64,000 bases of DNA from Escherichia coli (lineage in GTDB: Bacteria > Pseudomonadota > Gammaproteobacteria > Enterobacterales > Enterobacteriaceae), in NCBI RefSeq assembly GCF_029227855.1, contig NZ_CP074356.1; one strand, written 5' to 3'. The first letter of the stretch is position 1. Every line of letters starts with the position of its first letter. The position numbers and the translations under genes are program-made. Under the pieces are notes generated by a model, which was given only the letters and a program-made list of their open reading frames with translations, had not been told where the DNA came from and made no database searches. Below, piece by piece: positions 10,306 to 14,463 of the stretch.

Positions 10306-10470
10306 AGGTTCTTAGTGAGCCGTTTTTAAAAGATATGATAATATATTATTGTTTATAAATTGTTGATGTTTGATTTAGTAGTATATAAAGTTCACCACCT
10401 TTATTAGGCTTTCCTTTTATCTCTACTTACTGGGTGCCAGAAACTTTAAATTTTAAACGGAGGGGGCATT

Positions 10471-11292
10471 TTGTTTAAAGCAAATCATGTTCCGGTATTA
10501 ATGTATCATCATGTCAGCCATTGCCCAGGACTGGTTACACTTTCTCCCGAGACATTCCGGAAACAAATGAAATGGTTGGCTGAAAACAACTGGAAAACAC
10601 TGTCATCAGATGAACTGGAGTTTTTTTATCGGGGCGGAAAACTTCCCCGTAAAAGCGTTATGTTGACATTTGATGATGGATACCTTGACAACTGGTTTCA
10701 GGTATATCCTTTATTAAACGAGTTTAATCTCAAGGCACATATTTTTTTAATTACCAGTTTTATTGGAAATGGTCCGGTTCGTCACTCTCCTGGAAAGGAA
10801 TATTCTCATCGCGATTGCGAACATCAAATAGCAACCGGGAATGCTGATAATGTTATGCTTCGCTGGTCTGAAGTGAACGAAATGTTGCAATCTGGTCTGG
10901 TCGAATTTCATGTTCATACACATACTCATACACGTTGGGATAAAAAGTTCACTTCACGAGAAGAACAGTGTAAACATCTTCGGCAGGACTTATTGAGCGG
11001 GAGAGAATATTTAAAAAATATGACAGGAAAATGCAGTAAACATTTGTGTTGGCCGGAAGGTTATTATAACAAGGATTATATTCAGATCGCTGAAGAACTT
11101 GGATTCCATTATTTATATACAACAGAAAGAAGAATGAATGCTCCTGCTAAAGGAACTACACGGATAGGAAGAATAAGCACCAAGGAACGGGAAAATTGCG
11201 TATGGCTGAAAAGACGACTTTTTTATTATACAACACCGTTTTTTTCATCGTTGCTGGCCCTTCATAAGGGGCCAAGATTACCGGATGACTAA
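10471..11292 (+). CDS. shf: Polysaccharide deacetylase family protein (Shf/Ecf1-like)
   Basis: 273-aa ORF, AT-rich, first gene of a four-gene cluster with the same order as plasmid shf-capU(rfbU)-virK-msbB2; start codon uncertain (TTG at 10471 or ATG at 10501). Confidence 0.7.
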   Translation: MFKANHVPVLMYHHVSHCPGLVTLSPETFRKQMKWLAENNWKTLSSDELEFFYRGGKLPRKSVMLTFDDGYLDNWFQVYPLLNEFNLKAHIFLITSFIGNGPVRHSPGKEYSHRDCEHQIATGNADNVMLRWSEVNEMLQSGLVEFHVHTHTHTRWDKKFTSREEQCKHLRQDLLSGREYLKNMTGKCSKHLCWPEGYYNKDYIQIAEELGFHYLYTTERRMNAPAKGTTRIGRISTKERENCVWLKRRLFYYTTPFFSSLLALHKGPRLPDD

Positions 11293-11294
11293 TA

Positions 11295-12383
11295 ATGAAT
11301 ATACTATTTACGGAATCATCACCGAATATAGGTGGTCAGGAATTACAGGCTGTTGCTCAAATGAAGGCCCTGAAGAAAATGGGGCATTCAGTTCTGCTTG
11401 TCTGCAGGGAGAACAGCAAAATTGCTTTTGAAGCCAGTAAGTTTGGAATTGATATCACATTCGCGTTATTTCGAAACAGTCTTCACATTCCTACTGTATG
11501 GAGATTACTCGGAATAGTTCATAGTTTTCAGCCCGATGCAATCGTTTGTCACAGTGGACATGATAGTAATATTGTTGGTTTGGTACGGTTTTTTACCTGG
11601 AAACATCCATTCAGAATTATCAGGCAAAAGACATATTTGACACGAAAAACAAAATTTTTTTCAATAAATCATTTTTGCGATGAGGTGATTGTTCCCGGAA
11701 CAAATATGAAGACACATCTGGAGCAGGAAGGATGTCGAACTCGGATTACTGTTGTGCCTCCTGGCTTTGATTTCCAGGAATTATACGTTGATTCCCGAAA
11801 CAGTTTGCCTCCGAGTGTTCTTTCCTGGCTGGCGTCCCGAAGAGGATGCCCCGTAATTGCTCAGGTAGGAATGTTGCGCCCGGAAAAAGGGCACGAATTT
11901 ATGTTGAATTTACTGTTCCATTTAAAAATGAATGGACGACAGTTCTGTTGGTTGATTGTGGGGTCTGGTTCACCTGAACTGCGGGAACATTTACAGTATC
12001 AGATTGACAGTATGGGCATGCATGATGATGTTTTTATTGCTGACAATGTTTTTCCTGCCGCCCCCGTATATCGGGTTGCCAGTCTGGTGGTTCTGCCTTC
12101 AGAAAACGAATCTTTTGGTATGGTGCTGGCAGAAGCATCGGCATTTTCTGTGCCTGTAGTGGCCACTCAGATTGGTGGAATCCCTGAGGTTATTCAGAAC
12201 AACCAGACCGGGACATTGTTACCAGCAAGTAATAAGCACGCATGGATGTGCGCCCTGAATGATTTTTTTAATGACCCTGGGCGTTTTTATCAGATGGCTC
12301 GCCTGGCAAAACAGGATATAGAAGAGCGGTTTGATATTAATAAAACTGCGTTAAAAATACTCACATTAGCGAAGCAAAAGTAA
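11295..12383 (+). CDS. capU: Glycosyltransferase family 1 protein (CapU/RfbU/Ecf2-like hexosyltransferase)
   Basis: 362-aa ORF immediately downstream of shf; GT1 family features. Confidence 0.7.
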   Translation: MNILFTESSPNIGGQELQAVAQMKALKKMGHSVLLVCRENSKIAFEASKFGIDITFALFRNSLHIPTVWRLLGIVHSFQPDAIVCHSGHDSNIVGLVRFFTWKHPFRIIRQKTYLTRKTKFFSINHFCDEVIVPGTNMKTHLEQEGCRTRITVVPPGFDFQELYVDSRNSLPPSVLSWLASRRGCPVIAQVGMLRPEKGHEFMLNLLFHLKMNGRQFCWLIVGSGSPELREHLQYQIDSMGMHDDVFIADNVFPAAPVYRVASLVVLPSENESFGMVLAEASAFSVPVVATQIGGIPEVIQNNQTGTLLPASNKHAWMCALNDFFNDPGRFYQMARLAKQDIEERFDINKTALKILTLAKQK

Positions 12384-12387
12384 CAAT

Positions 12388-13338
12388 ATGTTTTCTATAA
12401 GTAACTTATCATTTATCGGTTTCCTTAAAAGGATTATTTTTTCCTCAGATTCACTACCGGGGAAGTGGGAACACAGAAAATTTCGGTTCATGTACATTTT
12501 GCGATGTTCTATAAATCCGGTTGTCAGTATTCGATATTATTATGAACTGCGTTCCTTGCCGTGCATTGAGGATATTCTGGCAATACACCCCACGTTGCCA
12601 GCAAGAATTCATCGCCCTTATTTGCATAAAGGGGGGCGCGCCTGGACCCGTGGACAATATATTCTTGAGCATTATCGCTTTGTGCAAAATTTGCCAGAAA
12701 AATATTCTAAATTTTTGTTTCCACAAAAATCGGTATCATTAGTCCAATTCATCGGGAAAGATGGAGAGAATTTTGATATCCAGTGTTCTCCCAGTGGTTT
12801 TGACCGGGAAGGAGAGTTGATGTTGTCATTGTTTTACAATAAAACAGTTATTGCCCGGTTAACATTTTCAGTCATTCTGACTCAAAATGGACACATTGCT
12901 TTTATTGGCGGATTACAGGGAGCCCCTAAAAATACCGGACCTGATGTTATTCGGTGCGCAACCCGGGCCTGTTATGGGATTTTCCCAAAACGGATTATTT
13001 TTGAAGCATTTTGTGCGTTGATGAAAGCTTGCAATATCTCTGAGTGTCTGGCAGTCAGTGAGCACAGTCATGTTTTCCGGCAATTGAGATACTGGTATCA
13101 GAAACGCAAAACCTTTGTTGCGGTCTATAGTGATTTCTGGGAGTCTGTAGCAGGAAAAACCTGTGGTGACTGGTACAGATTACCAACCCAGGTGATTCGA
13201 AAGCCGCTAAGCGATATAGCCAGTAAAAAACGCTCTGAGTACCGAAAACGATACGCTTTGCTGGATTATATCCATGAAACTACTATCCGCTCTTTGGATG
13301 CATATCCTGTACACTCAGAACATCAGAATTTAAATTAA
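12388..13338 (+). CDS. virK: VirK family protein (DUF535)
   Basis: 316-aa ORF in the conserved position between capU and msbB2. Confidence 0.7.
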   Translation: MFSISNLSFIGFLKRIIFSSDSLPGKWEHRKFRFMYILRCSINPVVSIRYYYELRSLPCIEDILAIHPTLPARIHRPYLHKGGRAWTRGQYILEHYRFVQNLPEKYSKFLFPQKSVSLVQFIGKDGENFDIQCSPSGFDREGELMLSLFYNKTVIARLTFSVILTQNGHIAFIGGLQGAPKNTGPDVIRCATRACYGIFPKRIIFEAFCALMKACNISECLAVSEHSHVFRQLRYWYQKRKTFVAVYSDFWESVAGKTCGDWYRLPTQVIRKPLSDIASKKRSEYRKRYALLDYIHETTIRSLDAYPVHSEHQNLN

Positions 13339-13402
13339 GGTTTGATGTATTCTCTGAATAAAACAGTAATGATAATTTTGGTAGAGGCATTCGCACTAAA
13401 TA

Positions 13403-14347
13403 ATGAAAAAATATAAATCTGAGTTTATTCCTGAATTTAAGAAAAATTACCTTTCCCCTGTTTACTGGTCTACATGGTTCCTTTTGGGAATGATTGCAGG
13501 TATTTCAATGTTTCCCCCTTCATTCAGAGATCCTGTCTTGGCAAAAATAGGGCGTTGGGCGGGCAGATTGAGCAAAAAAGCTCGTCGCAGGGCGACGATT
13601 AATTTATCGCTTTGTTTCCCAGAAAAGAGTGATACAGAACGGGAAATAATTGTCGACAAAATGTTTGTCACAGCATTGCAATCCATAGTGATGATGGCAG
13701 AACTGGCAATTCGTGGTCCGGAAAAGTTCCAGAAACGAGTGTTCTGGAAAGGCCTCGAAATTCTTGAGGAAATTCAACACAATAATAGAAATGTGATTTT
13801 TCTGGTTCCCCATAGCTGGAGCGTGGATATTCCTGCAATGTTGCTGGCAGCTCAGGGAAAAAAAATGGCCGCCATGTTTCATCAGCAACGAAATCCAGTG
13901 ATTGATTATGTCTGGAATTCAGTACGGCGTAAATTCGGGGGGCGCTTACATGCCCGGGAGGATGGGATAAAACCATTTATTCAGTCAGTACGCCAGGGAT
14001 ACTGGGGATATTACCTCCCAGATCAGGATCATGGTCCTGAATACAGTGAATTTGCTGATTTTTTTGCGACCTATAAAGCGACATTACCAATCATTGGACG
14101 TCTGATGAACATCAGTCAGGCTATGATTATACCACTTTTCCCGGTTTATGATGAAAAAAAACATCTACTGACTATTGAAATTCGGCCACCAATGGATGCT
14201 TGCATTGCCAGCGCGGACAATAAAACGATTGCCCGACAAATGAACAAAACAGTGGAAATTTTGGTGGGGCCACATCCGGAACAGTATGTCTGGGTTTTAA
14301 AATTGTTAAAAACACGCAAATCAAACGAAGCGGACCCGTACCCTTGA
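13403..14347 (+). CDS. msbB2: Lipid A late acyltransferase paralog (LpxM/MsbB family; MsbB2-like)
   Basis: 314 aa with strong full-length similarity to E. coli LpxM (e.g. NLSLCFPE, VIFLVPHSW, GYWGYYLPDQDHGPE, VWVLKLLKTRK). Confidence 0.85.
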   Translation: MKKYKSEFIPEFKKNYLSPVYWSTWFLLGMIAGISMFPPSFRDPVLAKIGRWAGRLSKKARRRATINLSLCFPEKSDTEREIIVDKMFVTALQSIVMMAELAIRGPEKFQKRVFWKGLEILEEIQHNNRNVIFLVPHSWSVDIPAMLLAAQGKKMAAMFHQQRNPVIDYVWNSVRRKFGGRLHAREDGIKPFIQSVRQGYWGYYLPDQDHGPEYSEFADFFATYKATLPIIGRLMNISQAMIIPLFPVYDEKKHLLTIEIRPPMDACIASADNKTIARQMNKTVEILVGPHPEQYVWVLKLLKTRKSNEADPYP

Positions 14348-14463
14348 AATTATAAAGTACAAGTATTTCCACTAGTTGTTTGTAAGCGTACAGCCTGAAC
14401 CGTCTGGTCAGAATCTGACGAATTAGACAAAGTGGTGTCCACCAAATAAGTAGTGGGAACCAA

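Follow-up and report, generated by a model that had tools for sequence, protein, structure and literature searches.

What is an operon known from virulence plasmids of Shigella and enteroaggregative Escherichia coli (EAEC) doing on an E. coli chromosome, is it intact there, and does its last gene provide a second LpxM-type lipid A acyltransferase? These questions are raised by positions 10306–14400 of a 64-kb stretch of E. coli DNA (the window, whose coordinates are used throughout), where the genes shf, capU, virK and msbB2 follow one another on the plus strand. Our answer, which we hold with high confidence, is that the leuX island here holds, on the chromosome, a copy of the operon shf(pgdA)-capU(rfbU/wabB)-virK-msbB2, an envelope-remodeling accessory module that would be activated by PhoPQ. 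The identity and intactness of the genes, their catalytic motifs, the purifying selection acting on them, the conservation of the PhoP box, the genomic context and the distribution of the module are all observed directly in the comparisons below. The locus itself is already known, as its chromosomal leuX-island location, its adjacency to fec and its control by PhoPQ have each been published. Chaudhuri et al. described all four genes in 2010 on the chromosome of EAEC 042 as Ec042-4769-72, adjoining fec (Ec042-4776-82), with a promoter that is regulated by PhoPQ, Mg2+ and temperature (PMC2808357), and the 2020 review by Desvaux et al. gives "Fec, VirK, MsbB2" for PAI-CE10-leuX and PAI-ED1a-leuX (PMC7545054).

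Gene Content and Integrity of the Cluster

The cluster consists of the following genes.

10471–11292, plus strand: shf/SfpgdA homologue, CE4 polysaccharide/peptidoglycan deacetylase, 273 amino acids, TTG start
11295–12383, plus strand: capU/rfbU/wabB/Sfgtr4 homologue, GT4 glycosyltransferase, 362 amino acids, full length
12388–13338, plus strand: virK (DUF535), 316 amino acids
13403–14347, plus strand: msbB2, second LpxM-type lauroyl-Kdo2-lipid IVA myristoyltransferase, 314 amino acids

These four intact open reading frames (ORFs) span 10471–14347 with gaps of 2, 4 and 64 nt, and no plus-strand terminator was called between the four genes. The protein comparison set comprised one Shigella flexneri pINV record, one pO157-type plasmid and core LpxM. 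Against pINV, all four proteins align over their full length, at equal lengths and without gaps, with amino acid identities of 96.0, 95.3, 93.4 and 95.2% in gene order. Gene order and strand agree and each of the four genes is a full-length orthologue, which assigns the cluster to the shf-capU(rfbU)-virK-msbB2 operon. Its G+C content (GC) is 40.6%, against 50.9% for the whole window, and GC at third codon positions (GC3) is 33–40% in the cluster genes versus 56–60% in the neighboring fecE and BCCT-family transporter genes. The ORFs, their families and their composition thus agree with the initial annotation, which was made from the sequence alone and had described four co-directional AT-rich genes in the order of the Shigella and EAEC virulence plasmids; the protein alignments and the GC profile, which it had singled out as checks, both came out in its favor.

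The ratio of nonsynonymous to synonymous substitution (dN/dS), computed against the pINV genes, is between 0.15 and 0.32 across the four genes, which argues that each of them is under purifying selection. A decaying pseudogene cluster is rejected on the basis of these values and of the intact, full-length reading frames.

The initial annotation had also ascribed the same gene order to the ecf operon of pO157, and this part of its description did not hold. The ecf operon (ecf1-4) of O157:H7 is likewise an AT-rich accessory operon that begins with genes for a CE4 deacetylase and a GT4 glycosyltransferase and ends with a second LpxM. Its third gene, however, is cptA, encoding a phosphoethanolamine transferase, whereas the third gene in the window is the DUF535 gene virK, which ecf lacks. 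VirK and CptA do not align, and Shf, CapU and MsbB2 share 69.6, 58.4 and 65.6% identity, respectively, with their ecf counterparts. At the DNA level, similarity is 67–70% and is confined to parts of genes, and no convincing alignment of the promoter regions was obtained; ecf is reported to be regulated through its upstream DNA, an intrinsically curved element. The window cluster and ecf are therefore related but distinct modules.

Distribution of the Module

Prevalence was determined by megablast of the 4.1-kb module against 5426 complete E. coli genomes. The module is matched in 568 of them, at 528 chromosomal and 122 plasmid places, and 429 genomes (7.9%) carry 80% or more of it. Records that are at least 99% identical number 543 and include 55989, the O104:H4 strain HUSEC2011, E24377A, an O169:H41 enterotoxigenic E. 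coli (ETEC) and ST167 isolates. A 4.1-kb sequence that recurs at this identity in so many E. coli records is not a chance pattern. Plasmid copies are 98.5–99.3% identical in ETEC and EAEC and 96–97% identical in Shigella pINV. Less than 80% of the module is retained in 139 of the 568 matching genomes, and IS903B, IS1 and other events account for interruptions or partial deletions in a minority of genomes.

Among the described chromosomal loci, those of EAEC 042 and of the CE10 and ED1a leuX islands have these four genes next to fec in an unchanged order, and the EAEC 042 locus is 98% identical to the window copy. The same arrangement is present in E24377A, 55989, HUSEC2011 and O169:H41 F6326-C1. 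Nothing substantial separates the window from these chromosomal relatives; it is without the 2.27-kb group II intron by which the upstream insertion sequence is split in several of them and without the IS66 of E24377A.

The Promoter and Leader Region

The region upstream of shf contains the following elements.

10306–10470, plus strand: promoter and leader region, 165 bp, 30.3% GC, aligning with the pINV promoter region
10350–10366, plus strand: PhoP box TGTTTA-TAAAT-TGTTGA, found by motif scan
10379–10384, plus strand: candidate −10 element TAGTAT, 12 nt past the PhoP box
10459–10463, plus strand: Shine-Dalgarno sequence GGAGG, 7 nt before the shf TTG, read from the sequence

When up to one mismatch is allowed, the motif KGTTTA-N5-KGTTTA occurs at only two sites in the whole 64-kb window, the shf box and a site in the mgtA promoter, whose surroundings are listed here.

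50305–50321, minus strand: perfect PhoP box GGTTTATCGTTGGTTTA, upstream of the Mg2+ riboswitch and mgtA
50111–50226, minus strand: Mg2+ riboswitch, Rfam RF01056, 125.8 bits
47321–50017, minus strand: mgtA, downstream of the Mg2+ riboswitch

The mgtA promoter is the canonical PhoP-activated promoter, and the perfect box found there therefore serves as an internal positive control for the detection of the shf box. The latter reads TGTTTAtaaatTGTTGA in the window and TGTTTAtgaatTGTTGA in Shigella, so that the operon has the PhoP box expected upstream of shf; a difference of 1 nt, in the spacer, separates the window box from the one that Lin et al. list for Shigella in their Table 5. In Shigella, the same authors demonstrated binding of phosphorylated PhoP (PhoP-P) to the shf promoter region by gel shift (EMSA) and by DNase I footprinting, and an shf::lacZ fusion shows 9-fold phoPQ-dependent expression at low Mg2+ (PMC5775216). 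The candidate −10 element falls where Shigella has its −10 sequence TAAATT, which was mapped together with the transcription start by primer extension (PMC12562796). By this alignment, transcription in the window is predicted to start near 10391, giving a leader of ∼80 nt. A search of Rfam at E values up to 1 over 8100–15900 gave no match to a riboswitch or other regulatory RNA in the leader, and the predicted folding of the leader is no better than that of shuffled sequence (z = +1.0).

PGAP annotates shf as an 843-nt coding sequence beginning at 10450, where the codon is ATT in the window and ATG in pINV. The TTG at 10471, which lies behind GGAGG at a distance of 7 nt, is the more likely start of shf in both.

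The S. flexneri pINV operon is alike in gene order, in protein lengths, in the spacing of PhoP box and −10 element and in having a copy of IS600 in its vicinity. It differs in being plasmid-borne, in its nucleotide sequence, as noted above, and in its leader. In an alignment of the window, the E24377A chromosome, two ETEC plasmids and pINV, ∼53 bp of the pINV leader are absent from each of the others, and matches to Shigella plasmids start only at query position 80, just beyond this indel. In addition, the codon 21 nt before the TTG is ATG in pINV but ATT in the window, which leaves the TTG behind the stronger GGAGG. The upstream insertion sequence (IS) is represented by the following features.

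9057–10305, minus strand: inactive IS3-family element, nearest named element ISEc52, its left end abutting the shf promoter region
10204–10305, minus strand: terminal ∼102 nt of this element, the stump that ETEC plasmids and Shigella pINV also retain in front of shf

The blastn alignments of the ETEC plasmids and of pINV all begin at window position 10204. Every plasmid copy examined thus has the same 102-nt stump, and the full-length element is found only in the chromosomal arrangement. The identical cut base in ETEC plasmids and pINV indicates that the junction between the IS and shf is older than the split of the copies examined and that a single truncation event is common to those on plasmids. 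That the whole element occurs only in the chromosomal arrangement hints that this arrangement is closer to the ancestral state, and the Shigella and ETEC/EAEC plasmid copies could have derived from it. On the strength of these sequence differences we entertain, as a tentative proposal that we consider rather unlikely, that the E. coli-type copy is regulated unlike that of Shigella, with the changes in leader, −10 element and start altering PhoP dependence, thermoregulation or translation, and that the leuX arrangement is the ancestral one.

PhoP often counters silencing by H-NS, and the initial annotation had taken the upstream region for a regulated promoter that might be silenced by H-NS. 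The first part of this description is supported by the conserved PhoP box, which makes PhoP the supported regulator, whereas the evidence for the second is limited to AT-richness and to the repression of shf by Hha in EAEC 042 (PMC4864382). Silencing of the region by H-NS is plausible on these grounds and would be compatible with counter-silencing by PhoP. The stronger proposal, that the module is transcriptionally silent cargo, coated by H-NS/Hha over its AT-rich 4 kb and persisting by hitch-hiking on the leuX island, appears unlikely to us. It draws on the composition of the cluster and its upstream region, which is typical of H-NS targets, on the Hha result, on the core lpxM of essentially all genomes, which makes msbB2 formally redundant, and on the minority of genomes in which the module is interrupted or partly deleted. 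However, the four reading frames have remained intact at the low dN/dS values given above, the PhoP box has been conserved, and the homologous Shigella promoter is inducible (PMC5775216). Moreover, silencing and activation by PhoP are compatible states rather than alternatives.

Predicted Envelope Functions of Shf, CapU, and VirK

Shf matches PF01522 (Polysacc_deac_1) with an E value of 4.7e-28 and carries the motifs TFDD (residues 66–69) and HTHTH (residues 149–153), which place it in the CE4 family; the canonical RxPY motif was not found in Shf. The protein is 96.0% identical to its pINV counterpart and 69.6% identical to that of the pO157-type plasmid, with a dN/dS of 0.15. On pINV, the homologous SfPgdA confers resistance to lysozyme and to neutrophils and interacts with the glycosyltransferase (PMC7355660).

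The top NCBIfam matches of Shf are the deacetylase models PgaB (TIGR03938) and IcaB (TIGR03933), with E values of 6e-35 and 3e-21, respectively. This, together with the lowered biofilm of an shf insertion mutant of EAEC 042 (PMC2808357) and the altered biofilm kinetics of Shigella SfpgdA and Sfgtr4 mutants (PMC7355660), could be taken to mean that the main role of the operon is modification of an exopolysaccharide or biofilm, with Shf as an IcaB/PgaB-like deacetylase of poly-N-acetylglucosamine (PNAG) working with CapU and with the effects on lipid A and peptidoglycan being secondary. The model scores argue otherwise. Shf reaches 120.6 bits on PgaB against a cutoff of 321.9 and 75.9 bits on IcaB against a cutoff of 248.35; neither equivalog assignment is accepted, and values this far below the cutoffs indicate that only the CE4 domain is shared. 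The module also contains no PNAG synthase gene, the pINV homologue reportedly confers resistance to lysozyme (PMC7355660), and the linkage to an LpxM equivalog, like the control by PhoP, points to remodeling of the envelope. We consider a primary biofilm role improbable, more so than silent cargo.

CapU, the name under which this gene is annotated in relatives, contains the GT-B fold domains PF00534 (Glycos_transf_1) and PF13439 (Glyco_transf_4), as expected for the GT4 family, and its EX7E motif is ESFGMVLAE at residues 272–280. It is 95.3% identical to the pINV protein and 58.4% identical to the pO157-type protein, with a dN/dS of 0.23. CapU/RfbU has been renamed WabB and is reported to add glucosamine (GlcN) to the R3 core (PMC2808357 supplement), and an in vitro study reports the transfer of glucose onto lipid A (PMC7355660).

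VirK is a full-length member of PF04393 (E value of 1.9e-89), which it matches over residues 26–298 of 316 and model positions 2–278 of 281. It is 93.4% identical to VirK of pINV, with a dN/dS of 0.32. VirK is described as a cytoplasmic, predicted GNAT-like protein that is needed for outer-membrane impermeability and for resistance to cationic peptides (PMC12562796).

MsbB2 and the Core lpxM Gene

MsbB2 scores 444.3 bits on the LpxM equivalog model TIGR02208 (lipid_A_msbB), well above the cutoff of 336.05, and far below the cutoffs of the LpxL and LpxP models; it also matches PF03279 (Lip_A_acyltrans) with an E value of 4.9e-96. The proposal of a second LpxM-type acyltransferase is thereby upheld. 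The HX4D-type catalytic residues, whose absence would have spoken against it, are present as HSWSVD at H137–D142 and align with H139–D144 of core LpxM. A match to the structure of Acinetobacter baumannii LpxM (5KN7, E value of 2.3e-8) places the motif on the segment VPHFGTWEV. Amino acid identity is 95.2% to the pINV protein, 65.6% to the pO157-type protein and 69.6% over the full length to core LpxM, which belongs to the same equivalog family, has the same HX4D motif and is encoded outside this operon; dN/dS is 0.24.

That the host also has a core lpxM elsewhere had been presumed. In a sensitive blastn search of the 5426 genomes with msbB2 as the query, 5425 show a match at ∼70% nucleotide identity that corresponds to core lpxM, and 5515 records that match at 60–80% identity are annotated as lpxM. 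The core gene is flanked by mepM and pyk. The E24377A chromosome holds both copies, with a 100% match to msbB2 in addition to the core gene, in keeping with that presumption.

The Shigella MsbB2, which is 95% identical, has been described as a myristoyl transferase that acts like lpxM (PMC2808357 supplement; PMC12562796). By analogy, MsbB2 is predicted to have the same activity as LpxM, placing C14:0 at the 3′ secondary position of penta-acyl Kdo2-lipid A. The suggestion that this gene could alter lipid A acylation is thus sustained as far as the second LpxM is concerned, but not as to a different acylation pattern; hexa-acylation under PhoPQ-inducing conditions is what would be expected. A specificity unlike that of LpxM in acyl chain or position, yielding a new lipid A species, could find room for altered chain-length selection in the 69.6% identity to core LpxM, but it is highly improbable given the equivalog score, the distance from the LpxL and LpxP cutoffs and the behavior of the Shigella enzyme.

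Proposed Mechanism

In the mechanism that we propose, low Mg2+, acidic pH or cationic peptides would signal through PhoQ to activate PhoP. PhoP-P would occupy the box at 10350–10366, standing in for a −35 element, and transcription from about 10391 would proceed through all four tightly spaced genes. Shf would then act as a CE4 deacetylase, as does the pINV homologue, which deacetylates peptidoglycan and protects against lysozyme. CapU would be a GT4 transferase that decorates lipopolysaccharide (LPS), and VirK would be a cytoplasmic DUF535 protein contributing to a normal outer-membrane barrier. MsbB2 would add the secondary myristate that converts penta-acyl to hexa-acyl lipid A, backing up core LpxM while the PhoPQ regulon is active. 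We infer the regulation, the co-transcription and the biochemical activities from Shigella proteins that are 93–96% identical and from the EAEC 042 locus that is 98% identical; homology and the tight gene spacing support a single PhoPQ/Mg2+-dependent transcript.

Several points weigh against this mechanism. The footprint of Lin et al. covers −115 to −81, whereas in the pINV record the box spans −149 to −133 relative to the annotated ATG, a mismatch that is likely due to differing start annotation. The leader is ∼53 bp shorter than in pINV and the −10 element reads TAGTAT rather than TAAATT, and promoter strength or regulation could differ as a result. A generic sigma-70 scan calls no plus-strand promoter in 10306–10470, and its total matches do not exceed chance; such a call is not expected for a PhoP-dependent promoter that lacks a −35 element, so the scan is uninformative and is not positive evidence either. 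With an intact core lpxM, moreover, MsbB2 may contribute little under most conditions. Finally, the literature is split on three of the proteins, with Shf viewed as a peptidoglycan deacetylase or as a biofilm factor (PMC2808357, PMC7355660), CapU as a GlcN transferase of the core or, in vitro, as transferring glucose to lipid A, and VirK as a chaperone or as a GNAT-like enzyme.

Flanking Elements and the leuX Island

The surroundings of the cluster are marked by the following features.

7403–8170, plus strand: fecE, last gene of the ferric citrate operon and left neighbor, identical to WP_000175457.1, annotated FecE in relatives
14464–15710, plus strand: IS600 copy, 1247 nt, 98.7% identical to annotated IS600
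26230–26314, minus strand: leuX tRNA-Leu(CAA), island anchor, found by ARAGORN and as Rfam tRNA

The cluster lies 11.9 kb from leuX. In collinear relatives the order is fecIRABCDE, the upstream IS, the four genes, IS600, the BCCT transporter gene, DUF2254 and an IS3, followed by IS remnants with a group II intron, a decayed integrase that is annotated beside leuX, leuX itself and ahr. The tRNA with its integrase remnant, the multiple IS elements and the atypical GC identify the segment as the leuX island, and together with the adjoining fecE they bear out the chromosomal placement given in the initial annotation.

That annotation had also bracketed the cluster by a dead IS911-like copy and an IS600-like element. 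Both brackets are found, the first under another name. The OrfA of the upstream element probably resembles that of IS911; however, the best annotated match is to ISEc52 elements, at 98.7% identity (query 8–1245), and the name IS911 is rejected. Inactivity is evident from orfA and orfB, which are split into several ORFs and annotated by PGAP in relatives as frameshifted, and, compared with the plasmid stumps, from the loss of 1 nt in the A-run with which orfA starts. In the window this element is uninterrupted and represents an empty site, whereas in E24377A, O169:H41 F6326-C1 and WP8-S18-ESBL-07 it contains a 2.27-kb group II intron (ltrA); the intron-split regions compared are 7372–10862 of record L004 and 15569–19035 of record L006. 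The sole intron copy in the window is located at ∼22.8–24.4 kb, with the ltrA ORF at 22801–24324 and the Rfam Intron_gpII match at 24328–24414.

On the right, the IS600 copy is 17 bp shorter than the annotated element (1247 vs 1264 nt) and encodes a single fused 379-residue transposase at 14528–15667 where IS600 usually has two overlapping frames. This fused protein, WP_000088357.1, is annotated at the same position in several genomes. Between the msbB2 stop and the end of IS600, the 76 nt at 14376–14451 are 96% identical to a piece of pETEC_74 that lies ∼270 bp farther from msbB2 there, which points to a small indel where the shared module ends on the right. Genes for a BCCT-family (BetT-like) transporter and a DUF2254 protein occupy 15815–19158 (plus strand) between IS600 and an intact IS3. 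They constitute separate island cargo that accompanies the shf cluster in every relative examined.

Some records show the island rearranged. In NZ_AP022261.1 (WP8-S18-ESBL-07), the whole segment bounded by the two intron-bearing IS copies has the opposite orientation to window 8170–26314, so that leuX and the integrase adjoin shf and fecE is at the far end, an inversion that likely arose by recombination between repeated IS/intron copies. NZ_CP060942.1 (pEC11-5) is a circle of 21115 bp that was deposited as a plasmid without replicon or relaxase typing and contains nothing but the island segment seen in the window, with fecIRABCDE, the upstream IS, the four genes of the cluster, IS600, the BCCT gene, DUF2254 and IS3; the 23-kb NZ_CP021680.1 has msbB2 followed by an identical IS600. 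These two records could be excised IS-bounded circles or assembly artifacts. Rfam matches at gathering score in the core part of the window, namely Ysr276 (184.9 bits) and three naRNA4/CssrE repeats, at 32327–32521, 33355–33526 and 60402–60479 (all minus strand), are unrelated to the cluster.

Conclusions

As a discovery, the cluster carries little weight, since the locus, its position and its control by PhoPQ are all in print; it is a real but ordinary accessory operon. Its significance is more practical. Genome surveys count capU and virK among the virulence markers, and in ∼8% of complete E. coli genomes they are chromosomal. Carriers of the chromosomal form include multidrug-resistant lineages of the ST167 type, O104:H4/55989 and ETEC, and detection of capU or virK therefore does not imply the presence of a pAA or pINV plasmid. 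In addition, the second lpxM becomes relevant when core lpxM is deleted from such strains to detoxify their LPS.

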